A stretch of DNA of 64,000 bases. It comes from an uncultured virus (IMG/VR IMGVR_UViG_3300022753_000059). Its lineage: Duplodnaviria > Heunggongvirae > Uroviricota > Caudoviricetes. The stretch lies in the IMG/VR virus record IMGVR_UViG_3300022753_000059. One strand, given 5' to 3'. The stretch's first letter is position 1; the number at the start of each line of letters is the position of its first letter. This document shows positions 17,331 to 34,433 of this stretch, in pieces. Both the position numbers and the translations under genes were made by a program. The notes under the pieces were generated by a model. It made no database searches. It was not told where the DNA came from and saw nothing but the letters and a program-made list of their open reading frames with translations.

Positions 17331-20300
17331 TTATCCGTGATATGTTTCGTCAAAATCGTGTACTACATCTATGAGAGCCTGGGTCAACTGCTGCTTCACA
17401 TCGTTGATTACGGCTACATTATCTGGGTTAGTGAGGTCGATGGACTTCACGTTCATCAGATTTTCAATTTTTACAATTACTTGCTTCGGTGCGGCAGAAT
17501 TGTTGTTATAGTGCGACTTGTAGTTGGACTGATTGGCACCTCCAGTACCGCCAACAACTCTTGGAATGACTGGTGTATTACCACCTGGATTCTGCCTCTG
17601 TAATGCTTGTTGCATTTCGGCATCGGTCATATCCACTAATGGCCCATGTCCGCTTTCTGGAACCCATTTGCCATTTTGCCAGGTATATTTCACACCATTC
17701 AAAGTTTTTTCACTGCCACTTTGAGAACCGTTTGGATCGCCAAAACCCCATATTGGACTATTGACAAAACTATTGAAGTATGGCTGAATCTTTGGACTCA
17801 GTTTATTCACCATATCAATAATCTGCTGGTGGAAAGTAAGGAAATGCCTTCTTGCTTCATCCGCTGTAAGCGTAACTTGTTCAAGTTTTCCAGTCTGCTG
17901 ATTCAGATATGTATAGGTGCCAGAATGCCATTGATTGTCATACCAACCAAAATACTTCATAAATTGGTCGGAACCAAAAGCACCATATCGCTGACTATTG
18001 AATATATCAATACCACCATGCAGCAAGAAATTACCCAACAAATCAGTCGTTACTTCTTGCTGAGTTTCGTGAGCGGTCAATATTTTCTGCAAGTCAGCAA
18101 GCTGTGTGGCCAATGCTGTTTGCGGATTATTCCACATAAACTGATCGTACAATCCTTTCTGCAATGCAGTAACGTAGTGATAACTCATACGGTTAGTAGC
18201 CATTGAGTTCTCACCAATTTGGCTCATGTTCCAATATTCACTGCCTTTATAGTATTGTAATGACTGTGCGTAAGAAGTGAGGTCTTTAATAACAGCATAG
18301 AAATCTTGCGGAGTCGCTGCTTGCAAGATTCTGGCTTGGTAGCTATCAATCAGTTCACGTAGCTGGGAGCCTTCGCTCGTGTCTCTACCCAAACTATAGA
18401 GCAATCTTGAAGCGGCAATTTGGCTAAAGGCATTCTTTGTTTCATATTCGCCATAGTCCACGCCATTGAACATAAGATGATAATAATCATGGCCATTTGC
18501 GTGTTGCCATTTCCGTCTCTCAACAGCCATTTGAGGATCATTAAGATCAATAGCAAACCCTCCAATAGCAGCAATCCATTCATCCTTATTCGAGAACTTA
18601 CCAAATGCAGCACTGGCATTCTCAAAAGTTTCTTTATTTGATTCCTTGAATGGCGTGGCATCTTTGATTTCCTGCTCTGCTTGCTTCATCAAACCAAGCT
18701 GTTCACGCATTAGATTGATATGTTCACCGATAGCACGATTAGTGTCTAATTGCTTATTATAAACAATAGACAAATACTTATCTGCCATCGTAGCATGTTC
18801 AGAGTAGTTTATACCATTTATAGTATTGGTACTGGAAATGAAATCATTGTTTGCTTGCGTAGCTACATCAATAGCCTCGTGATACTTATGGAAATAATAA
18901 GCAGCACCACCAACGGCCAACCCAATAGCAGCAACCCAGCCAATTGGATTCGAGAACAATGCAGTAGCAACACCTGGAGCGGCCAGTAAACCACCGCCAA
19001 TGCCTCCAATAATACTGCCCCACATGCCTCCGTTCTCTTCATCAATAGAATTTCCAATAGCGTAGCCCAAGCCACCACCAACAATACCACCAAGACCAGT
19101 ACGGATTGAACCCCAGACACCTGGAGCCAATCCCATACCACGGCCCATACCGCCCATAGCACCGCCACGGCCACCGTACATCCTCTGATAGCGTTCCCAG
19201 ACAGCTGGAGAGATTTCTTTGCCATGAGCCATTGTAGCAGCACCATAATTAAATGCGCCACCCCAGCCCATAGAAGCATTTGCTCTTCTAAACGCCATCA
19301 TAGCAGCTGTACTCCTACGAATATTAGCTGCAAGCGTTACAAACCCATTGATAAATGCACCGAATCCCTGGGTAAGACGAATGGCACCAAGAACTGCGTA
19401 CCAAGCAGACTTCAAAACACGGAGTCCGTAAATGACTGGCCACATCCTCAGTTGAAGTTCCAAGAACAGCATAATTGGCTTTCTGAATTTCTCGTAGAAG
19501 TCCATAATCGTCTTAGTGAAATCACCAAGGATTCTTGCAAAGTTCAAAATGTCCTCTGCAAATGCCTTAATACGACTTCTTGCATCGTCCGTACCCAGCC
19601 ATTCAGTTACGCTCTTGAGCATGTCGGCAATCTGAGGACGTACAGCTTCAAAAGCTTGCATAGCACCCTCTGTAAACATAGAAGTTGTCTGCGCCCACAA
19701 GCCTTGTACTGTATTCTGTTTAGCTTCTGCCAAACGAGTTGATATACCAGAAGATTTACGGTTCTCTTCGATAATCTTATCCCACTTCTCTACAGACTGC
19801 ATGAGTGATACACCACCCTGGGCGGCTGTTACACGGAATAAGTCAAACGTAGAACTCTGCGCTCCAGCTTCTGCCAAATCCTTGAAAATGGCATAAGGAG
19901 AACGTAATGTACCATCGGCATTTCTGGCAGTAACACCGAATCTATCTAATGCGGCCTTCTGACTCTTGGAGGGTTTCAAAAGGTTGTTCATCAACTGGCG
20001 AATTGTCGTACCAGCGTGAGAACCCTTCAAACCAGCATCACCAAGAATACCGATCATACCAGTAGTCTCATCAAAGCTCCAGTTGTTAGCTCTTGCGATT
20101 GATGCAAAATACTTGTATGACTCTGCCATTTCTGGAAGCGTAGTATTCGACATGGTGAATGTCATTGTCATCTTGTCGGCAATATCACGCATCTGATTAG
20201 CACCCATGCCGTATGCTGTCATAATATTGGTCACAACATCGGCTGTCTCACCAAGGTCAGTGTCTGCGATAAGGGCAATATCTGTAATAGGTCGGATTGC

Positions 20301-21356
20301 ACTATTGATTTCCTCAATATTCAAACCAGCCATAGCGAGGAAGCGACTTGCGTCTGCAACCTCTGGAGCCGTGAACTTAGTCTTTACGCCAATTTGACGG
20401 ACGTTGCGCTCCATAGCATGAAAACGTCCTTCAAAATTTTCACGGTTATCATGCGAACCAAGGATGTTCTTGGTGGTCTGCATGATATTGTCGTATTCAG
20501 TAGCACTACTGATAGCACTACCGATACCAGTGCCTAACCCTGCAATACCGTATGCGATACCCATACCCTTCAAGATGTCAACGGCTCCAATGCCACCGAC
20601 ATCCATAGGAGTTGCACCCAACATCTTATAACCAAGCGCATTCGGGTAAAGGCTTCTGTATCTTGCGCGTACTGGAGCAACACGAGTACCGCCCCTTGCG
20701 CGTCCACGAGGAACTGGAGTTGGCTCTACAAAATTCTCCCTGGCAGCAGTCCAAGCGTTCATTACGCCTGGGTTTTGTCTGGCAAATGCGCGTGTACCAG
20801 CCTTACGTGACTGTTCCATATATCGCTGGTACAATGGGTCTGTCTTATAGTTCCAGCCAAACATAGCCGCATTGTCGCGGATAAGCTTTGCCCTTGCTGC
20901 GTAACTGGATTGTAAACGCTCCCAACGCTGAACAACTGGATCCTTCATGGGTTGACGGTTCAACGTACTGGAAACACGTCTGCCATTACCACCTCCAGTA
21001 GCAACAGTTGTAGTCCTGGATGCTGCGCGTCCACGAGAAGTTGCACCAGCAACGCTACCGCCACCAGCACCAACCGTCATGTTCAACGACCTTGCGGTGG
21101 CCATGAGCCGTTCCAGTTTTCCCTGCAATCTGTCAATCTTAGCCTCTGCTTGCTTCGTATTGATGAAAACCTCTGCCTTGACCTTACCAAGAGAGGAAAT
21201 ATTAGTTTTGAGACTATTGATCTTCTGATTCAGCTTCTGGAATGGAGCCGATGCCTTCTTGAGCTGTTCGGAAGCCATTGTAAAACGCCCGATAGCTTGC
21301 ACCGCATCTTCCGCAAAGACGTTAATGTCGTAATTGACTACATAATTCTGCGCCAT
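17331..21356 (-). CDS. Tail tape measure protein
   Basis: TP901-type core (TKFTAPEVADASRFLAMAG, GLKGSHAGT), Gly/Ala-rich hydrophobic segments; ATG 21356. Confidence 0.92.
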   Translation of the reverse strand: MAQNYVVNYDINVFAEDAVQAIGRFTMASEQLKKASAPFQKLNQKINSLKTNISSLGKVKAEVFINTKQAEAKIDRLQGKLERLMATARSLNMTVGAGGGSVAGATSRGRAASRTTTVATGGGNGRRVSSTLNRQPMKDPVVQRWERLQSSYAARAKLIRDNAAMFGWNYKTDPLYQRYMEQSRKAGTRAFARQNPGVMNAWTAARENFVEPTPVPRGRARGGTRVAPVRARYRSLYPNALGYKMLGATPMDVGGIGAVDILKGMGIAYGIAGLGTGIGSAISSATEYDNIMQTTKNILGSHDNRENFEGRFHAMERNVRQIGVKTKFTAPEVADASRFLAMAGLNIEEINSAIRPITDIALIADTDLGETADVVTNIMTAYGMGANQMRDIADKMTMTFTMSNTTLPEMAESYKYFASIARANNWSFDETTGMIGILGDAGLKGSHAGTTIRQLMNNLLKPSKSQKAALDRFGVTARNADGTLRSPYAIFKDLAEAGAQSSTFDLFRVTAAQGGVSLMQSVEKWDKIIEENRKSSGISTRLAEAKQNTVQGLWAQTTSMFTEGAMQAFEAVRPQIADMLKSVTEWLGTDDARSRIKAFAEDILNFARILGDFTKTIMDFYEKFRKPIMLFLELQLRMWPVIYGLRVLKSAWYAVLGAIRLTQGFGAFINGFVTLAANIRRSTAAMMAFRRANASMGWGGAFNYGAATMAHGKEISPAVWERYQRMYGGRGGAMGGMGRGMGLAPGVWGSIRTGLGGIVGGGLGYAIGNSIDEENGGMWGSIIGGIGGGLLAAPGVATALFSNPIGWVAAIGLAVGGAAYYFHKYHEAIDVATQANNDFISSTNTINGINYSEHATMADKYLSIVYNKQLDTNRAIGEHINLMREQLGLMKQAEQEIKDATPFKESNKETFENASAAFGKFSNKDEWIAAIGGFAIDLNDPQMAVERRKWQHANGHDYYHLMFNGVDYGEYETKNAFSQIAASRLLYSLGRDTSEGSQLRELIDSYQARILQAATPQDFYAVIKDLTSYAQSLQYYKGSEYWNMSQIGENSMATNRMSYHYVTALQKGLYDQFMWNNPQTALATQLADLQKILTAHETQQEVTTDLLGNFLLHGGIDIFNSQRYGAFGSDQFMKYFGWYDNQWHSGTYTYLNQQTGKLEQVTLTADEARRHFLTFHQQIIDMVNKLSPKIQPYFNSFVNSPIWGFGDPNGSQSGSEKTLNGVKYTWQNGKWVPESGHGPLVDMTDAEMQQALQRQNPGGNTPVIPRVVGGTGGANQSNYKSHYNNNSAAPKQVIVKIENLMNVKSIDLTNPDNVAVINDVKQQLTQALIDVVHDFDETYHG

Positions 21357-21375
21357 TATAGCTTGATATTGTTTA

Positions 21376-21385
21376 CAAAGAATAG
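21376..21385 (-). promoter_or_regulatory. CTATTCTTTG motif, putative late promoter element
   Basis: 19 nt upstream of the tape-measure ATG. Confidence 0.55.
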
Positions 21386-21416
21386 GGTATTGCCATTTCT
21401 TGTGGTTAAGAAAAAT

Positions 21417-21447
21417 CCCCATCACCACAGTATTATGATGATGGGGA
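21417..21447 (-). terminator. Stem-loop terminator after the chaperone frameshift ORF
   Basis: TCCCCATCA...TGATGGGGA inverted repeat followed by a T-run on the minus strand. Confidence 0.6.
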
Positions 21448-21452
21448 GCGGA

Positions 21453-21662
21453 TTATTTTTTAGAAGAGCCGAGGAGTCCTAATGTATTTGCTTGTTGAAT
21501 GCGTACTTGGTGAGCGTCCAGCCATTCAGCATCGTTGGCGATAATGGCGAACTCTTCATCGCTTAGACTCTCAACATCTATTCCTGGGAAATAATGCCGA
21601 ATAAATATCAGCTTTTGTCGGAAATAATCCTTATCGCCTACTTCCCAGGCTTTGATAAATTT
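21453..21662 (-). CDS. Tail assembly chaperone C-terminal extension (gpGT-like), reached by -1 frameshift
   Basis: Open -1 frame FIKAWEVGDKDYFRQKL...GSSKK with no ATG/GTG/TTG; slippery A AAT TTA at 21656-21662. Confidence 0.8.
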   Translation of the reverse strand, partial: KFIKAWEVGDKDYFRQKLIFIRHYFPGIDVESLSDEEFAIIANDAEWLDAHQVRIQQANTLGLLGSSKK

Positions 21663-22039
21663 ATGAGATTGCCGTGACGCATTTCAATAATGCGAGAGAG
21701 CTGGCCCATCAAGCCGAAGAGGAACAGCGAGTCATCGTCCACCAGTTCCATGTCACCAGCGAGGAAACAATCCTTTGCCAGTGTGCGCATGGCTACGGCC
21801 TGGTTTGTCTGGGATGCTGAGAGATACTTGGAGAATGCCTGGAAGGTAGGTTGACGGAAATAGCCTACATAGACTTCCTTCTCGTCAAACTCATTTCCTT
21901 CGACAACGAGAGGGAACACCACGCGGAGCTTGGGGTCGCCTTCCTTGATTTCCTTAACTTTTGCCTCGATTTGTTTTGCCAATTTCTCATTAGTGAGCTG
22001 GCCATCCTCATTGAAGAGGGGTTCTTTGATTACTGCCAT
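21638..22039 (-). CDS. Tail assembly chaperone (gpG-like)
   Basis: Between tube and tape measure; ATG 22039; ends in a slippery site. Confidence 0.8.
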   Translation of the reverse strand: MAVIKEPLFNEDGQLTNEKLAKQIEAKVKEIKEGDPKLRVVFPLVVEGNEFDEKEVYVGYFRQPTFQAFSKYLSASQTNQAVAMRTLAKDCFLAGDMELVDDDSLFLFGLMGQLSRIIEMRHGNLINLSKPGK

Positions 22040-22169
22040 AATTTTGAATATTAAAAATGGATTATCTTTATGATGAATAGAGAGCGATAACATATATCGT
22101 TTGAAAAGTGGGGAGATATTTTCATACCTCCCCACTCGATAGTATTAATCAAGACCGTGTAACACCTTA

Positions 22170-25670: not shown

Positions 25671-26930
25671 TTAAAATGTTTTGAGTTCAACATCACCGAC
25701 AACGGCCTTCACCTTCTCAGCCATCTTTGCCTGTGCGTCTTTCAGCTGCTCCTCAATGTGATCCTTGTTTGCAGGGTCATTGGCGATTTGCTGCGAGATA
25801 ACCTCACGTGCTGGGATGGAGTCAAGGGTAGTCTTGACGGTTTCGAGATTGTCCTGGGCCATCTGGATCCAAGAATCCTTGGACTTCTCATCAATTTTGC
25901 CAGCGTCAATGGCATCCTGCACGAGCTTTTCAATAGCGGCATCGTGAGCTGCCTTCTCCGCATCCTTGTAGGTCTTGAGGTCAGCCTTAACCTTGTCAAG
26001 CTCAGTCTGCATGTTGGTCACAGCAGCTTCCTTACCCTGGTACTCAATCTTGAGTTTATCCAGCTGAGACTGAACCTCCTTGAGATCAGCTTCTGCCTTC
26101 AAAAGCTCTGTGATACGACCAGATACAGATGCAACCGCAACGTCAGCAGAAAAACCAAGCTGAGCGGCCACAGCCTCAAAATTTACTTGCTTTTCCATTT
26201 TTGTTTGATTTTGGTTTGAATCTTGTTCACTTTGTAAACGAATAGCGGCTACTTCTTCGAGAAGTTTATTTTCATCCACTTCCTCAACGATAGTTGCCAT
26301 GATGTCGCGCAAAGACACGGCATTTGTTATTCCTTCAATTTGATTTTTTACTTTTTCAGTGACTTGCTTGGAAGTCTTTAGAATATGGTTGGCTGGAAGA
26401 ATGCCAGCAGCAACAGCTTCTTTCGCGCTGAAATAAGTACCGTCAGCCTCACCTTCACCATCCATAATGGCACGTACCTTTTCTTTCGATAGGCCAAAAC
26501 GCTTGGTGTAGATGGTCTCAATCTGGGTACGGAAAGCATTGACCATGTTCTTCACATTCTCATCCTCAGAATCCTGCGAGTAAACGAAAGGATTGTGAAT
26601 CATAAGGATGGAATAATCGTGCATGTACAAATGATCTCCAGCTGACCAGATAACGCTACCCATTGATGCAGCAATACCCTCAATCACACAGTCAACCTCG
26701 ATAGGACAAGACTGGATGATTGAGAACGTACTCATGCCATACAACACAGAACCACCGTCTGAATTGATAAGGACGATAATCTTCGATGGCTTAACATAGT
26801 CTTGCAACCAAAGAAACTCCTCATTAAAGCATTCGGTAGAACAACTGTCAACAGCTCCAAAGAAACGTATAATGGCAGGAGCATTCGCTTCGGCCTTACC
26901 AACCACATACTTGAGTTTATTTACGTCCAT
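25671..26930 (-). CDS. ClpP-like (S14) prohead protease with C-terminal coiled-coil scaffold
   Basis: INSDGGSV, GIAASMGS, MIHNP motifs; ATG 26930. Confidence 0.88.
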   Translation of the reverse strand: MDVNKLKYVVGKAEANAPAIIRFFGAVDSCSTECFNEEFLWLQDYVKPSKIIVLINSDGGSVLYGMSTFSIIQSCPIEVDCVIEGIAASMGSVIWSAGDHLYMHDYSILMIHNPFVYSQDSEDENVKNMVNAFRTQIETIYTKRFGLSKEKVRAIMDGEGEADGTYFSAKEAVAAGILPANHILKTSKQVTEKVKNQIEGITNAVSLRDIMATIVEEVDENKLLEEVAAIRLQSEQDSNQNQTKMEKQVNFEAVAAQLGFSADVAVASVSGRITELLKAEADLKEVQSQLDKLKIEYQGKEAAVTNMQTELDKVKADLKTYKDAEKAAHDAAIEKLVQDAIDAGKIDEKSKDSWIQMAQDNLETVKTTLDSIPAREVISQQIANDPANKDHIEEQLKDAQAKMAEKVKAVVGDVELKTF

Positions 26931-26946
26931 TGTCAATCAATTTTTT

Positions 26947-27729: not shown

Positions 27730-28223
27730 TTCGGAAATCCTTCAAATATTTTTACTGATAGAGCTTTAATTCTTTTGTCAAGTACGGTGGAGAAACCTAT
27801 GAATTGACGTTGAACACTGGGAACTCCAGTGCGTCCGTATGTATGAGAACCGCTTGGGTCGTTATGTACAGCTGCATAACAGAATCCTTTATGTCTGGCA
27901 GCTGTTCCAAAAGCATTCGGATCAGTATAAATACGCATCTGCGTCTTTGTCTGTTCCTTATACTTGATGGAGTTTTTCAATGTGCCAGTCTCGTGCATAA
28001 TCGGATGTTTATAGCTACGAGTACGTTCCCTCCATGTCATAGAGTTGTTGGTATTCATCCTATGCAAATCAAAGGATTCCTGGAACACCTCAACGGCAGC
28101 TTTGGAAGCTTCAACCTTGAAGTTCCACAACTGTAATCCAAAACGATGCTGCAACGGCCTCCATTGCTGCGTCAATTGTTCTGGAGTGATGGGCGTTCCG
28201 CGTCTATTCCTTATCTTTGCCAT
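27726..28223 (-). CDS. Virion morphogenesis protein (Mu gpG / tail S-like)
   Basis: ETGTLKNSI, YAAVHN, QRQFIG motifs. Confidence 0.75.
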   Translation of the reverse strand: MAKIRNRRGTPITPEQLTQQWRPLQHRFGLQLWNFKVEASKAAVEVFQESFDLHRMNTNNSMTWRERTRSYKHPIMHETGTLKNSIKYKEQTKTQMRIYTDPNAFGTAARHKGFCYAAVHNDPSGSHTYGRTGVPSVQRQFIGFSTVLDKRIKALSVKIFEGFPK

Positions 28224-29127
28224 TAAAATACTTCTCCTTTATTCGTTGTGAAATAGACTCAAGCTGTTCCCGATGTTCCTCCTTGATCTGGAAGTATGGA
28301 TGTTCATCGGAAAATATTCTTCCACCTAATGCCACACTCTCCTTGAAAGTAGGATTGAACCAGAACGGCATTGAAGGAACAATTACGCGCTCATTGTTTA
28401 CATCCTTAATCTGACCATACACATCCTCATCTTCAACAAGGAAGCAGCGGCATCCGTGTTCAATCGGTGGTATGAGCCATGCTGGGAATCGAGACTTTGG
28501 TGCCGAATATCCTTCATACTGCAAGTGCCAGGGCCTCACACGCTCATCGCCTTGTGTCATGTAAGTAAGGATGGTGGTTTCCTTCAATTTATACAAGCCA
28601 GCCGCAACAATCATGGCATATTCAACATCCATGTCCTCAGTTGCAGCGTATGTCTTGTTATATTTAGCGAATATTGCGTGGAACTCATCGTCCGTATCGT
28701 CATCATCTTCATCGCCATCTTCATCATCCAACTCATCTTCATCTGGAAGATTCATCGCCATCTGATACTCTTCTGCAACGGCAAAATCAATGAGGTTGTC
28801 AACGGCAGCAAGAATGACGTTACGTTTTGCCTCCTGCTCTGGAGTCAAATTCTCATAGTTCCTCAAAAGGTCAATGGCATCTTCGTATGTTCCACCGAAT
28901 CCGTCAATGGCGTGGTGAATCAACAAGTCGGCACGTAAAGCCATCAACTCTTCCATCACCTCCCACTGATCGCTGTCTTTATCAATGCTTTCAAGCAACC
29001 GCTCGAATATAGCAAGCAGGGCCGCAAATTCTTTCTCTTTGCGTTCCTCATCTTGCTTCGGCAGTTTCTGTGCTTGAACCTGGGAGAGAGAAGCCCTACC
29101 GATTACTTTCTCCCCGACAGAAAATTT
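28204..29127 (-). CDS. MuF / SPP1 gp7-like minor head protein; frame is open back to a slippery site in the portal gene
   Basis: YMTQGDERVRPWH and PPIEHGCRC motifs; the ORF track starts at TTG 28998 but the frame is open to 29127. Confidence 0.8.
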   Translation of the reverse strand, partial: KFSVGEKVIGRASLSQVQAQKLPKQDEERKEKEFAALLAIFERLLESIDKDSDQWEVMEELMALRADLLIHHAIDGFGGTYEDAIDLLRNYENLTPEQEAKRNVILAAVDNLIDFAVAEEYQMAMNLPDEDELDDEDGDEDDDDTDDEFHAIFAKYNKTYAATEDMDVEYAMIVAAGLYKLKETTILTYMTQGDERVRPWHLQYEGYSAPKSRFPAWLIPPIEHGCRCFLVEDEDVYGQIKDVNNERVIVPSMPFWFNPTFKESVALGGRIFSDEHPYFQIKEEHREQLESISQRIKEKYFNGKDKE

Positions 29128-30416
29128 ACGGCTCCACGCGCATGTCCGTACCTTTTATAGTATTCTTCGTCTGACATGATGTAACGGTCGCCATCACCTC
29201 CAGTGGAAGCACCACCACCAACGCCACCAGCTTCGAGATTAAGCTGCTTACCGACAACGACACCGAATGTCTTTTCGATTTCGTCAGCGGCAATCTCGTA
29301 ACGCTCAGTCAAGAACTGGTAGAGGTCAATCTGGTCTTTGTCTGACATTTCAAGACGCTTAGCGTACTTGAACTCCAAACCAGGCTTAATGTAGCCCATC
29401 AAAACCAAGCGAGGCAGGATTTCCTCGTTCATCACATTCTCGATATACTCACGGTACACCTCCACACGGTCACGGAATACATCCTGGTGTGCGCGAGTGG
29501 AACCGACATACGACTGGGTTTCACCAGCCATAGACTCAGAACCAAGGATGAGGTTCGACACTTCCTTGTTCACCAAAGCAATCAGTCCAGTAAACACCTT
29601 CTCAGAGTTTGACATCGTGAATGTCTTGATGTCAACCTCATCGTTCAAGCCAGTAACGACAACCTTATTCTGAGCGGCACTGGCAATATCATTGGCTAAT
29701 CGCTTGCGGTCAGTCGTACTCTCTGATTCTGTCTTACCATGAATAATTGGCTGGCCGTATGTGTGTGAGAAATTCACGTAGTTAGCCATCGTGAACTTCT
29801 TTGCAAGAATCAATGGCGTGGTAGCTGAGAACAGACCAAGTGTTCCAGAGTTGATGAGAATGTAGTGATCACGATATTGGCGGTCATCAAAGTTCCAGCC
29901 TGGACTCCACATACTTTGACGCTTTACAATACGCCTTTGGTCGGCCAACACATTACGTCTCTCAATCTGGTTGACGTACTTGAGCTTTCCAGTGCGCTCA
30001 TCAATATCTGGCAGAATCTCAAGGGCCGTATAACCATAGAGCTTTGACTCTACAATGCCACGGATAATCTTGATGAACTGGGTGCCTTGAATCTTCTTGG
30101 TTTCCTCCACATCACGGACATATTTACCCTTCTCATTCAACCTTGCAAGCATATAACGCTCACCGACAATCTGGGATTCCAGTGTTTCAAGAACAGACGC
30201 AAGATGGGCATCCTGCTGAACACAAGCGTCATAAAGGTCAATCAGTTTCCCACGGTCATCCAGAACCATACCTTCGTGGATATGACTCTGAATGGACTTG
30301 AAGTGACAGTACCTCTCTATCTCTCTGGTATATTCCTGGATTGTTTTCTTGCTCGTGCGGAATATGCTTTCCAGAAGATCTATGTTGAACTTTTCTGAAC
30401 TTTCTACTGTAGCCAT
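29103..30416 (-). CDS. Portal protein (DUF935 / Mu gp29-like)
   Basis: DAHLASVLE, YGYTALEI, YGQPIIHGK, NKEVSNLILG, SYVGSTRAH motifs; precedes MuF. Confidence 0.85.
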   Translation of the reverse strand: MATVESSEKFNIDLLESIFRTSKKTIQEYTREIERYCHFKSIQSHIHEGMVLDDRGKLIDLYDACVQQDAHLASVLETLESQIVGERYMLARLNEKGKYVRDVEETKKIQGTQFIKIIRGIVESKLYGYTALEILPDIDERTGKLKYVNQIERRNVLADQRRIVKRQSMWSPGWNFDDRQYRDHYILINSGTLGLFSATTPLILAKKFTMANYVNFSHTYGQPIIHGKTESESTTDRKRLANDIASAAQNKVVVTGLNDEVDIKTFTMSNSEKVFTGLIALVNKEVSNLILGSESMAGETQSYVGSTRAHQDVFRDRVEVYREYIENVMNEEILPRLVLMGYIKPGLEFKYAKRLEMSDKDQIDLYQFLTERYEIAADEIEKTFGVVVGKQLNLEAGGVGGGASTGGDGDRYIMSDEEYYKRYGHARGAVNFLSGRK

Positions 30417-31651: not shown

Positions 31652-31979
31652 TCTGAGGGAGTCAGAACACCACATCCTCATATTCAACCCAACCAAGCGT
31701 CTTGTCGCAATCGCCCAATCAACATGGGCCGCTGGCCGTATGTTCAAAACCAACCAGCAACGTGTGAAAGACGTTTGCATTGGAAAACAAATATCGACAT
31801 GTGGGTTCTATTTCCGTTATCTGGACGATAGCGTTGAGGTCACGTTCCAAGACCTTGGAACTCTGTCACTCAAAGAGTATGACGAGTTATGCGGTGTTGA
31901 CAGACCAATATACGCCACGAACAAAATGAGCCGTAAAGGTATGAAGTATAAAACAAGAAAAAAGCAAGAAGAAGTATGA
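31641..31979 (+). CDS. Hypothetical DNA-binding protein (NUMOD1-like HTH)
   Basis: [10 protein letters not shown]...[19 protein letters not shown] pattern. Confidence 0.5.
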
Positions 31980-32410
31980 AAATCAAAATCATCAACAAGT
32001 CAGCCAATGAGCTGCCATCCTACGAGACCATCCAGTCCGCTGGAATGGATCTGAGAGCAAACAATGATAATCCCATCATTCTCGCTCCAATGAAACGTGT
32101 ACTCATCCCGACTGGTCTGTACATTCAGCTTCCAGTTGGTTACGAAGCACAAGTTCGCCCACGCAGCGGACTGGCTCTCAAAAATGGTATAACAGTCCTT
32201 AATGCACCTGGAACGGTGGATGCCGATTACCGTGGTGAAATAGGCGTTATCCTCTTTAATGCAAGCGATGAACCGTTTGTCATCAACCGTGGCGAGCGTA
32301 TCGCCCAGATGGTAATTGCCAAACATGAACGTGCCGAGTTTGAACTCGTTGAATCACTGGATGATTCCGAGCGAGGACAAGGTGGTTTCGGACACACTGG
32401 AGTAGCGTAA
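31976..32410 (+). CDS. dut: dUTPase (trimeric type)
   Basis: [37 protein letters not shown]. Confidence 0.97.
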
Positions 32411-32465
32411 TCATTCATAGGTACGGCATAGGGTAACTTGTGCCGTACCATTAATTTCATACATT

Positions 32466-34433
32466 ATGAGTGCAACAGTACAATCGACCGAGGTGAACAA
32501 AATTGAAACATTGTTGGGCCAAATCAAAAAGCACAACGAATCTTACCGTCTTGGATGTCCAGAAGTATCTGACCAAGAATACGATGCAGAAGTAGAACTT
32601 CTCAAAAGCCTCGATCCAGACAATGACTGGTTCAAACATACAGAGCCAGTAAACGTGCCGACAAGCCGTAAGGTGTCTCTTCCAATTCCAATGAAATCTC
32701 TGAACAAGGTGAAGAACCTTCCAGAACTATTCGCATGGTATAACCAGTTTAACATCAATGAAGAGGAACACGTTATCATCACGCCAAAATTCGATGGCCT
32801 CTCACTCCTTTACAACGAGGACACACTCCAGGCTTATTCGAGAGGCGGTGCTGACAACGAAGGCCAGGATTGTACCAAACATGCAAAGATGGCTGGGTTC
32901 AAGCGTGATAACAATATTCTCTATTACTCTTTCGGGGAGTTTGTATTCAGCTGCAAAAACTGGGAGGAACACTTTGCAGGAAAGAAGTCGGAAGAGACTG
33001 GAGAACCGTACAAATCTCCAAGAAATACGGCAGCTGGATTGCTCATGCGCGACCAGCCTTCCGAGTTGTTAAAGTACGTAGATTTCTTCCGCTACGGCAC
33101 AGATGACAACTCACTTACACAGTTCAAGACATACATAGACGTATATCGGTATCTTTGCAAGACATACGACCAGCCATTCCTCATGGCCGCAATTCGGCCC
33201 AAAGACATCACTGAGGATTATTTGCTCAGTCTATTCAAAGAATGGCGAAAGCAATACTACATTGATGGTTTGGTCATCTATATCAACGACCTTTCCCTCT
33301 GGGAGAAGATTGGCCGACACACGACAACTGGCAATCCTCTATACGCCATTGCATACAAACATCCAGACTTCACGGAATCTTTCGAGACTACCGTAAAAGG
33401 AATTGCATGGAGAGCAAGTAAGGCTGGAGCATTGAAGCCAGTTGTAAATATCGAGACAGTTGACACTGGTGATTGCCAGATGGAGAATCCTACTGGCTAC
33501 AACGCAGGATGGATTAACAACATGGAAATCGCCAAAGGTGCCAAAATCCTCGTCACTCGATCTGGAGGCGTGATACCTAAGATTCTCCAGACTCTCATTC
33601 CTGCCACCGAAGAAGAACAGCATGAAATGTGGGATGAACTGGCATTCTGTCCTCATTGCGGAGAGCCTACGTCTTGGAACTCAAGCTACAAGGAACTCAT
33701 GTGTACAAATCCAGATTGTCCTGGCATCAAGCTCGCCAAAATCATATTCTTCTTCACGATATGCGGTGCGGAGAATATGGGTGAAGAAACATTCGCTAAA
33801 CTCTACGATGCTGGCTTCACATCCATAAAGGCTATACTCAATATGACAGCTTCCGATGTTATGAGTATTGATGGATTCGGAGAAAACATGGCCAGCATTA
33901 TTGCCGAGAACGCGAATAAGATCAAAGCTGGAGTCGAACTGCCTACGCTAATGCAAGCAAGCGACTGTTTCCCAGGTATCGGAAAGGTGAAGGCCCAGAA
34001 GATTATTGAAAAACTGTCAGAGGAAAGCCTGGAAGATCTGTATGACGATGAAGTCATCATAGACGTTGAAACCAACAAAGAACTCGTGAAAGAGGCTGAA
34101 AACGAAACGTGGCGTTCATTCTTCCAGGGCTACAATGCCTTCAAGAAATTCATAAAAGACAATGGGCTTACCATCAAAGAGCCAGAAAAAGTTGCCGTTG
34201 ACGCAAACGGACAGTTCAAGGGAATGTCTATTTGCTTCTCTGGAGTCAGAGACGCTTCACTGGAACAGCGCATAGTCGCTGGAGGTGGTGCCATTGCCAG
34301 CGGTGTCAGCAAGAATACAACGCACCTTGTGGTCAAGGATAAATCGGGAACATCAAGTAAAATCTCAAAAGCAAACCAACTTGGTATTCCAATTATCCAG
34401 ATTGATGAATTTGACGATTTCTTCAAAGTATGA
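32466..34433 (+). CDS. ligA: NAD-dependent DNA ligase
   Basis: KFDG adenylation motif, SPRNTAAG, Cys4 zinc finger, HhH repeats, C-terminal BRCT (GVSKNTTHLV). Confidence 0.95.
   Translation: MSATVQSTEVNKIETLLGQIKKHNESYRLGCPEVSDQEYDAEVELLKSLDPDNDWFKHTEPVNVPTSRKVSLPIPMKSLNKVKNLPELFAWYNQFNINEEEHVIITPKFDGLSLLYNEDTLQAYSRGGADNEGQDCTKHAKMAGFKRDNNILYYSFGEFVFSCKNWEEHFAGKKSEETGEPYKSPRNTAAGLLMRDQPSELLKYVDFFRYGTDDNSLTQFKTYIDVYRYLCKTYDQPFLMAAIRPKDITEDYLLSLFKEWRKQYYIDGLVIYINDLSLWEKIGRHTTTGNPLYAIAYKHPDFTESFETTVKGIAWRASKAGALKPVVNIETVDTGDCQMENPTGYNAGWINNMEIAKGAKILVTRSGGVIPKILQTLIPATEEEQHEMWDELAFCPHCGEPTSWNSSYKELMCTNPDCPGIKLAKIIFFFTICGAENMGEETFAKLYDAGFTSIKAILNMTASDVMSIDGFGENMASIIAENANKIKAGVELPTLMQASDCFPGIGKVKAQKIIEKLSEESLEDLYDDEVIIDVETNKELVKEAENETWRSFFQGYNAFKKFIKDNGLTIKEPEKVAVDANGQFKGMSICFSGVRDASLEQRIVAGGGAIASGVSKNTTHLVVKDKSGTSSKISKANQLGIPIIQIDEFDDFFKV

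Follow-up and report, generated by a model that had tools for sequence, protein, structure and literature searches.

Where does translation of the minor head protein encoded next to the portal gene begin, and does the portal reading frame end where it appears to end? The window analysed here is a 64,000-nucleotide stretch of DNA from an uncultured virus (IMG/VR IMGVR_UViG_3300022753_000059), a phage that is a member of a large group of gut Bacteroidales phages. Its portal gene occupies 29103..30416 on the minus strand and encodes 437 aa in the 0 frame, from the ATG at 30416 to the TAA at 29105-29103. The window's protein matched Pfam Portal_Mu (PF06074) with an E-value of 4.7e-48 and 164.7 bits against a cut-off of 23.9. 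The match covered profile positions 2-336 of 336, which places it above the gathering score among DUF935-type portals, and it also matched PHROG 113, portal protein. The 3' end of this ORF reads GCC GTA AAT TTT CTG TCG GGG AGA AAG TAA on the minus strand. The -1 frame is closed by a TAA at 29155..29157 (minus strand), after which an ORF opens nine codons before the AAA of the slip site and reads KFSVGEKVIGRASLSQVQAQKLPKQDEERKEKEFAALLAIFER... up to the TAG at 28206-28204. Counted from the slip site, the -1 ORF (28204..29127, minus strand) comprises 307 codons plus the TAG and contains a MuF-like module. The 0 frame ends five codons past the heptamer and MuF lies in the -1 frame, so the window does not have the layout of a single portal-MuF ORF. 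A sequence-only reading of this DNA had described the portal end, a heptamer at 29127-29121, the closure of the -1 frame by TAA and its run into MuF, all of which hold on the minus strand.

The slippery heptamer A AAT TTT was read directly at 29121..29127 (minus strand). It has the X XXY YYZ form of a programmed -1 ribosomal frameshift site and lies in the 0-frame phase (GTA AAT TTT, 29129-29121). Conservation of the heptamer and of the gene overlap, which had been proposed as a check, was borne out by 175 of 188 related loci, where AAATTTT is kept in the same phase. By collection, the in-phase heptamer was found in 2/2 phage records, 77/80 viral, 70/80 metagenome and 26/26 genome loci, loci of these four collections possibly overlapping (e.g. 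L053 and L192, whose contigs are equally long). Once related junctions were reduced to 65 distinct ones, it was invariant and in phase in all 65. The preceding codon was GTA in 19, GAA in 14, AAA in 11, ACA in 10, GCA in 6, CAA in 3, GGA in 1 and TCA in 1, every one of these eight codons ending in A; Asn was always AAT and Phe always TTT. The three third-codon positions within the heptamer are invariant, whereas adjacent third positions vary by 0.62-0.73. Rarity of the heptamer was dropped as evidence because the window is not enriched in it, having 21 copies of AAATTTT where 18.5 are expected, a count of 21 being reached in 33 of 100 shuffles. A second in-phase AAATTTT, in the head protease gene (26178-26184), where the -1 frame reads KF and then a stop, was considered as a dnaX-like truncating frameshift; it was rejected, as the site is not conserved and relatives have VSF or other residues at that place.

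Downstream of the heptamer we located a predicted stimulatory hairpin (29083..29115, minus strand). Its 5' arm GGGGAGAAAG (29115-29106) pairs with the 3' arm TTCTCTCTCC (29092-29083) across a loop, after a spacer of 5 nt. The stem GGGAGA...TCTCCC that the sequence-only reading had suggested is part of this 10-bp helix, which is supported by covariation, and RNAalifold returned the same helix as the one drawn by hand. In 47 distinct junctions, 92.1% of cells were paired compared to 57-73% in slid registers, and 8 of the 10 helix pairs showed compensatory changes on both sides. In these junctions the covariation score was 0.510 compared to 0.296 after shuffling, a value reached by 0 of 500 shuffles, with controls that ignore relatedness among rows and a 5' arm that is also doubly coding sequence. 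An alignment of 75 rows gave similar values (90.8% paired, covariation score 0.509). The arm sequences themselves vary widely among relatives, e.g. GGGUAUGCG/CGCAUACCC and GGACGAAG/CUUCGUCC. The hairpin window was more stable than 95% of same-locus windows in 64 of 65 junctions. The window's own hairpin, at -11.9 kcal/mol, is among the weakest of the family yet still falls within the top 3% of the 40-nt windows of its locus; the 71-nt fold of the window's site gave z = -0.26. The site therefore possesses the downstream RNA structure expected of a programmed -1 ribosomal frameshift site.

The product of the -1 ORF starts with a disordered linker, from residue 1 to about residue 20, followed by a full MuF-like module, and it is conserved in the alignment from residue 1. 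Its AF2 model has a pLDDT of 86.2 and a first helix at residues 27-48. The core MuF motif (28438..28590, minus strand; ...DERVRPWHLQYEG...HGCRCFLV) corresponds to residues 180-230. The window's protein did not reach the cut-off of Phage_Mu_F PF04233 (E 0.0028, 18.8 bits vs 29.6) nor that of NCBIfam TIGR01641, phageSPP1_gp7 (E 1.5e-4, 22.1 vs 39.65), and we therefore name it MuF-like, a divergent member. PF04233 was matched at E <= 0.01 by 11 of 11 aligned family members (best 2.4e-7), and phmmer ties the -1 product to fusions whose MuF part passes Pfam, such as P0067 (46.2 bits). In BFVD the top five matches were 'phage head morphogenesis domain' proteins (E 1.6e-7 to 5.7e-6), the best matches having TM of 0.52-0.60 across 272-305 columns. 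Among solved structures, a PDB sequence search for MuF had no match and Foldseek had none at E <= 0.001. Homology to MuF proteins that pass the profile, together with the shared fold, assigns the -1 product to the Phage_Mu_F / SPP1 gp7 minor head proteins. Coding selection on this frame was visible in a frame-blind DNA alignment: variability upstream of the site peaked at 0-frame codon position 3 (0.68), and past the hairpin at -1-frame position 3 (0.696, compared to 0.55 and 0.53 at the other two positions). Codon periodicity thus passes from the 0 to the -1 frame at the slip site, and, as is expected past a frameshift site, the long -1 ORF is under coding selection with no conserved start of its own.

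A natural comparison is provided by relatives whose MuF starts at an ATG of its own. Ten such loci, of the L071 and L167 types, have AAT TTC or AAC TAT in place of the heptamer and no conserved hairpin, so that the signal is absent where it is not needed, as selection for a programmed -1 frameshift would produce. These relatives also show that MuF is able to work unfused. In a quick tree of MuF proteins, the L071 type is nested, on a long branch, in a group of 41 rows whose other 40 are frameshift types (SH-aLRT 87), and the L167 type falls in an unresolved basal polytomy; this placement suggests that heptamer and hairpin were lost secondarily in own-ATG types. The converse arrangement was observed in distant homologues, all 17 long ones scanned being uninterrupted Portal_Mu plus Phage_Mu_F proteins. 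Sixteen of the 17 are 664-889 aa long; in P0091, the shortest (539 aa), the portal domain is represented by its C-terminal half alone. The window's portal and -1 ORF align collinearly along P0067, the match in the -1 frame running onward from residue 42 of the stop-to-stop -1 ORF P0001, which is residue 33 of the -1 product. Covalent portal-MuF fusions thus occur in phages, as the sequence-only reading had stated, and are described as uninterrupted genes in Microbacterium phages of clusters EA3/EA5/EA8 and EB (PMC7302621). Domain order is the same as that predicted here, and so is overall length (539-889 aa vs 737 aa). The difference is that in these fusions every portal subunit has MuF, whereas the two frames found here would give plain portal and a fraction of fusion.

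Taken together, these sequence features make it very likely that a programmed -1 ribosomal frameshift produces both the 437-aa portal and a 737-aa portal-MuF protein. Most ribosomes on the portal mRNA would pass AAU UUU and terminate five codons on, yielding the 437-aa portal. Some would pause at the hairpin that begins 5 nt past the heptamer; tRNA-Asn on AAU and tRNA-Phe on UUU would then slip back by one base onto AAA UUU, and translation would proceed in the -1 frame. Such simultaneous slippage predicts the junction peptide ...GAVNF-SVGEK, and the peptide given by the sequence-only reading, GAVNF-FSVGEK, has to be corrected. In the fusion, residues 1-432 of the portal would be joined through a flexible linker, some 20 residues long, to a complete MuF/gp7-like head protein. 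Since the C-terminus of the portal points into the capsid, MuF would end up within the procapsid, at a copy number governed by the slip efficiency; a minority of portal subunits may carry MuF, as that reading had hypothesised. The covalent fusion would replace, or supplement, non-covalent portal-gp7 docking of the SPP1 kind, and could either stay intact or be cleaved by the head protease. Slippage itself, its efficiency and the fate of the fusion are what we infer here.

The main competing explanations concern initiation within the -1 frame. No ATG, GTG or TTG lies in the stretch from the upstream -1 stop to the heptamer, either in any of the 65 distinct junctions or in the window, and the -1 frame of the commonest junction types has a stop codon immediately 5' of AAA TTT. 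Termination-reinitiation was rejected, since neither the window nor BS-TP1 has a start codon close to the portal stop. In the window's -1 frame, the part ahead of the first conserved helix is free of ATG, GTG and TTG. The earliest canonical start is a TTG (28996..28998, minus strand) at codon 43 past the slip site, that is residue 44, within helix 27-48; the first ATG (28954..28956, minus strand), at codon 57, falls in helix 54-77 of the model. The earlier statement that no ATG precedes the domain is accordingly correct for the whole MuF module and incorrect for the Pfam core (residues 180-230), which is preceded by ATGs, the first being that at 28956.

Frameshifting could be accompanied by internal initiation at TTG 28998 or ATG 28956, the former giving some portal-MuF and the latter free MuF, so that the fusion would account for just a part of the MuF supply. 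The window does have canonical start codons past the slip site, and in the interval from the slip site to the first helix an ATG occurs in 12 of 65 junction types and some ATG, GTG or TTG in 34 of 65, types that may make free MuF. Moreover, MuF works as a separate protein both in the own-ATG relatives and in SPP1 (PMC6316719). The window's two candidates, however, lie within helices of a confident model. Initiation at TTG 28998 or at a later ATG would truncate or remove the conserved N-terminal helix and has no conserved counterpart, the position of TTG 28998 not being conserved among the 65 distinct junctions. Starts assigned by gene callers in close homologues are likewise scattered over residues 18-65 of P0001 (9-56 of the -1 product). 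Ahead of the first helix, 53 of 65 junctions lack an ATG, and 31 of 65, the window's type among them, lack ATG, GTG and TTG alike. We regard this dual route as unlikely.

Much less credible still is that MuF arises by independent initiation only, from a canonical or non-canonical codon, the heptamer and hairpin having another role, for instance in mRNA stability or in a translational-coupling pause. The BS-TP1 record does annotate MuF as a separate gene with an internal ATG start, and starts are hard to judge from sequence in Bacteroidales because these bacteria do not need a Shine-Dalgarno sequence. This explanation is nevertheless at odds with a -1-frame coding signature and protein conservation that begin just past the hairpin, 5' of any start in the window, and with MT835494, which runs for 83 codons without a canonical start. 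It also leaves the invariant wobble bases of the heptamer unexplained, and heptamer and hairpin vanish exactly where an ATG appears.

RNA-polymerase slippage on the A3T4-5 run, making a shifted mRNA in place of a ribosomal slip, is highly improbable. T5 follows AAA in 25 of 65 junctions, but known RNA-polymerase slippage tracts are longer than runs of 4-5 bases, and ribosomal -1 frameshifting is what the strict X XXY YYZ phase, the unvarying A ahead of AAT and the hairpin 5 nt downstream are typical of. An assembly or sequencing indel in a truly uninterrupted portal-MuF gene, of the kind known in distant relatives, is effectively refuted, since 65 distinct junction sequences, drawn from many independent assemblies, from bacterial chromosomes and from an isolated phage, share the two frames and a 0-frame stop lying 4-7 codons past the heptamer. 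The predicted frameshift is thus supported, and each refutation named by the sequence-only reading that sequences can address (independent initiation, an unconserved heptamer, an assembly error) came out in its favour.

The closest parallel is the tail assembly chaperone -1 frameshift of the lambda gpG/gpGT type, reportedly described by Xu, Hendrix and Duda in 2004. In both cases a -1 slip on X XXY YYZ near the 3' end of a structural gene gives a C-terminally extended product, in an arrangement that is position-conserved across many phages. The same phage has its own chaperone site: the tail chaperone ORF (21638-22144, minus strand) carries A AAT TTA at 21662-21656, the near-identical site that had been pointed out, and its -1 extension stops just short of the tape measure gene. 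The BS-TP1 tail chaperone likewise has A AAT TTA. Unlike portal-MuF, whose two partners both belong to the head and whose signal includes a covarying hairpin, the lambda type joins two chaperone ORFs whose products are assembly factors absent from virions. Other -1 frameshifts in bacterial systems, those of E. coli dnaX and phage T7 gene 10A/10B, also combine a heptamer with a downstream hairpin, and T7 10B is a minor capsid protein that is likewise C-terminally extended; heptamers and genes are different, and the dnaX product is shortened, not extended. In SPP1, gp7, of the MuF family, is targeted to the procapsid in few copies by binding the portal gp6 non-covalently (PMC6316719). The two systems involve the same kinds of protein family and presumably serve one end, to have a few copies of MuF at the portal within the capsid, but SPP1 uses separate genes and non-covalent docking, whereas a covalent link by recoding is predicted here. 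We found no report of a portal-MuF frameshift in the literature searched.

Proteins of the MuF/gp7 kind are present in a few copies inside the head and help infection to begin, and in many phages they bear toxin domains. To our knowledge, SPP1 is the only phage for which it is known how their copy number is set, gp7 docking there on the portal. If our reading is true, a conserved frameshift would extend a fraction of portal subunits into portal-MuF and in this way serve to dose capsid cargo genetically, and phages would gain a second example of recoding in a structural gene. Annotation would also have to be corrected in a large group of gut Bacteroidales phages, whose MuF genes now have arbitrary internal starts. 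The frameshift is directly testable, because a cultured relative, BS-TP1, exists on Bacteroides salyersiae BG8. More speculatively, and with more doubt than conviction, portal-to-MuF -1 frameshifting might be a second widespread, position-conserved recoding class of tailed phages, comparable to that of the tail chaperone, that arose repeatedly with different heptamers. It might dose portal-tethered internal cargo, MuF by itself or bearing toxins or anti-defence enzymes, so that each capsid receives a few copies; later cutting of the linker by the head protease would free the cargo for ejection.

The portal gene (29103-30416, minus strand; Pfam Portal_Mu, E 4.7e-48; PHROG 113) ends with GCC GTA AAT TTT CTG TCG GGG AGA AAG TAA and thus contains, as the sequence-only reading had pointed out, the slippery heptamer A AAT TTT, at 29127-29121. 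The window holds 21 AAATTTT sites where 18.5 would be expected; judged from such counts the heptamer alone is not beyond chance, and the weight rests on relatives. We compared related loci from four collections: the records of two phages (Bacteroides phage BS-TP1; MT835494), the top 80 of 204 related viral contigs (14 contigs met twice were counted once), the best 80 of 302 related metagenome contigs and 26 of the 26 relatives found among prokaryote genome contigs. In 175 of these 188 loci, which are not all independent because the collections may overlap, the 3' end of the portal gene carries AAATTTT in an unchanged phase (phage records 2/2, viral contigs 77/80, metagenome contigs 70/80, genomes 26/26). 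Of the metagenome positives, L125 lies on a contig of low coverage, and its ORF upstream of the heptamer is broken. The 13 loci without an in-phase heptamer comprised three truncated or partial matches (L133, L165, L174) and ten of different gene layout. Among the 65 distinct junction sequences of L001-L176, AAT is preceded by eight codons for eight amino acids, each with a final A (GTA 19, GAA 14, AAA 11, ACA 10, GCA 6, CAA 3, GGA 1, TCA 1), while inside the heptamer Asn is AAT and Phe is TTT in 65/65. In a DNA alignment blind to frame, variability was zero at all three 0-frame third positions of the heptamer, compared to 0.62-0.73 for the three third positions upstream of it. The comparison indicates that the heptamer is under nucleotide-level selection.

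Upstream of the heptamer the -1 frame is closed by a TAA (29157-29155, minus strand), which had been placed 10 codons away; the stop is there, the frame opens 9 codons before the heptamer, and these contain no ATG, GTG or TTG. From AAA TTT at 29127 the frame runs through 307 codons to a TAG at 28206-28204 (minus strand; the -1 product). Tblastn and protein alignments reach residue 1 of this product in nearly all relatives. Codon-position variability switches frame at the slip site: in the frame-blind alignment variability peaks at the 0-frame third position upstream (0.68) and at the -1-frame third position after the hairpin (0.696 vs 0.55 and 0.53). In a protein-guided codon alignment the linker gave 0.526/0.320/0.674, resembling the undisputed coding region after it.

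Independent initiation of MuF, at TTG 28998 or a later ATG, had been named as a result that would refute the frameshift. This TTG is the first canonical start of the window's -1 frame and falls at residue 44, within a confident first helix of the AlphaFold model (residues 27-48, EERKEKEFAALLAIFERLLESI) that is conserved family-wide; the first ATG, at 28956, lies within the second helix, and disorder is confined to residues 1-14. The -1 frame thus runs into MuF without ATG, GTG or TTG before the first conserved helix; the earlier claim of no ATG ahead of the domain holds for the MuF module as a whole, as ATGs do precede the Pfam core match at residues 180-230. In none of the 65 distinct junctions does a start codon lie in the stretch from the upstream -1 stop to the heptamer, and in the commonest types a -1-frame stop codon immediately precedes AAA TTT. 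Ahead of the first helix, located by a custom pattern (40 codons were used in 2/65 where it failed), 53/65 junctions have no ATG and 31/65 no ATG, GTG or TTG. Gene-caller starts in close homologues are scattered from residue 18 to 65 of P0001, the stop-to-stop -1 ORF (9-56 of the -1 product). Across these junctions no start codon is conserved in the MuF frame. The public record of BS-TP1 starts MuF (gp44; L001 3166-3942) at an internal ATG, 47 codons past the slip site, so that between portal and MuF some 110 nt of -1 frame, open and conserved, carry no annotation.

A possible stem, GGGAGA...TCTCCC, had been suggested about 6 nt downstream of the heptamer. It was recovered as a hairpin pairing 29115-29106 with 29092-29083 (minus strand) and starting 5 nt after the heptamer. 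On 47 distinct junctions RNAalifold returned exactly the same 10 pairs as the hand-drawn helix; 92.1% of helix cells were paired, compared to 57-73% with the 3' arm slid by 1-3 columns, and 8 of the 10 pairs showed both-sided changes. The covariation score of 0.510, compared to 0.296 for shuffled alignments, was matched by 0/500 shuffles, bearing in mind that kinship among sequences can beat shuffles even without structure and that the 5' arm is doubly coding. A 75-row alignment, with one row (L197) taken at wrong coordinates, gave 90.8% paired and 0.509. The arms are diverse (GGGAGAG/CUCUCCC, GGAAGGAG/CUCCUUCC, GGACGAAG/CUUCGUCC, GGGAAUG/CAUUCCC, GGGUAUGCG/CGCAUACCC). When the 40 nt beginning 3 nt past the heptamer were compared with every other 40-nt window of the same locus, 64/65 junctions were more stable than 95% of them, with a mean energy of -16.5 kcal/mol. 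The hairpin under study is weak for the family (-11.9 kcal/mol vs a background of -5.4 ± 3.0, rank 0.030).

The -1 product is a divergent MuF/SPP1-gp7-like protein. It scores 18.8 bits against Pfam Phage_Mu_F and 22.1 against NCBIfam TIGR01641, below the cut-offs of 29.6 and 39.65; PF04233 is matched at E <= 0.01 by 11/11 of its aligned relatives, and phmmer connects it to proteins with a Pfam-passing MuF domain. Its model (pLDDT 86.2) has 'phage head morphogenesis domain' proteins as best BFVD matches, over nearly the full length (E 1.6e-7, TM 0.52-0.60); no solved structure was matched by sequence (PDB) or by model (Foldseek). The surrounding genes form the head-then-tail module of a contractile-tailed phage, with head maturation protease, probable capsid protein, tail sheath, tail tube, tail chaperone and tape measure. 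Two ORFs at 31952-34433 (plus strand) are divergently transcribed from the head module: a likely dUTPase (31976-32410), whose BS-TP1 counterpart is annotated as such, and a 655-aa protein (32466-34433) which, from its translation, looks like an NAD-dependent DNA ligase.

A near-identical site was also correctly foreseen in the tail assembly chaperone (21638-22144, minus strand), which ends ...CTC ATA AAT TTA TCA... with A AAT TTA at 21662-21656; its -1 extension (21453-21683) ends just short of the tape measure gene (17331-21428). The BS-TP1 chaperone retains A AAT TTA; in MT835494 the corresponding position of the alignment reads A AAC TTA, not a canonical heptamer. A second in-phase GTA AAT TTT lies within the head maturation protease gene (25671-26936; heptamer 26178-26184, minus strand), where the -1 frame reads KF then stop. 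A dnaX-like truncated protease is probably a chance reading, as the site is unconserved (VSF or other residues in relatives). Close by, 8/10 aligned proteins have a Met (K-M-E-x-x-E, about 26190-26200, minus strand) where the protease domain gives way to the C-terminal helical half. This Met may mark the start of a nested scaffold, of the sort known in Mu I/Z and lambda C/Nu3.

The ten heptamer-less relatives of changed layout are of two kinds. In L071, L072 and L089 the end of the portal gene reads GCT AAT TTC CTG ... AAA TGA and the MuF ATG overlaps the portal stop; in L167, L168, L170, L172, L173, L175 and L176 the portal gene reads GCG AAC TAT TTA and MuF begins at an ATG of its own in the +1 frame, some 17 residues ahead of the conserved helix. 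Both kinds lack the hairpin. Since relatives with their own ATG are without both heptamer and hairpin, heptamer, hairpin and missing start occur together. From these relatives it is also evident that a MuF protein of this family is able to work unfused. In a quick tree of MuF proteins the L071 type falls in a 41-row group, the other 40 rows of which have the frameshift layout (SH-aLRT 87, long branch), and the L167 type sits in a basal polytomy.

Record names of the relatives mention Bacteroides, Prevotella, Segatella, Palleniella, Phocaeicola, Alistipes, Muribaculaceae, Tannerellaceae, Porphyromonadaceae and Dysgonamonadaceae, two bins being labelled otherwise. BS-TP1, whose host is Bacteroides salyersiae, is temperate, and the accessible portion of its account does not contain the word 'frameshift' (PMC12694917). 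Five chromosomes (L198-L202, junction at 1801 in each), named for five species given as four genera (three Bacteroides species, Alistipes, Phocaeicola), have portal-MuF junctions identical to one another and to that of MT835494, suggesting a temperate element in wide circulation.

Covalent portal-MuF fusions, mentioned for some phages in the sequence-only reading, do occur. Among the 150 matches listed for the -1 ORF, 18 exceed 500 aa; 17 were domain-scanned (P0145, matched near its N-terminus, was left out), and 17/17 are uninterrupted Portal_Mu and Phage_Mu_F proteins of 539-889 aa, some with C-terminal nuclease-like or ADP-ribosyltransferase-like domains. The 727-aa homologue P0067 aligns with the window portal over 3-389 and with P0001 residues 42-308 (33-299 of the -1 product), with portal ahead of MuF as in the window; the predicted frameshift product has 737 aa. 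The distant fusions P0075, P0092, P0122, P0129 and P0136 carry C-terminal PBECR2, ART or CdiA_C-like domains and, by their domain matches, are three-part portal-MuF-toxin proteins. In-frame fusions are reported for Microbacterium phages in the part of that paper available to us (PMC7302621). Searches of article texts brought up no account of portal-to-MuF frameshifting, predictions of which might stand in supplements; the accessible text of the PRFect paper mentions only MuF-VIP2 (PMC10885494).

The proposal of a programmed -1 frameshift is therefore confirmed in its observation and supported in its interpretation by comparative evidence, and slippage very probably yields a portal-MuF fusion. 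The hairpin would pause ribosomes with tRNA-Asn on AAU and tRNA-Phe on UUU at the portal 3' end, and a fraction would re-pair on AAA UUU, then read on into MuF; the slip itself, like its efficiency, is inferred. In SPP1, according to the part of the source available, binding of gp7 by the portal protein gp6 targets a few gp7 copies to the procapsid interior (PMC6316719). Fusion would place MuF inside the capsid via the portal C-terminus. The linker between portal and MuF might be cut later; the Mu portal undergoes C-terminal processing.
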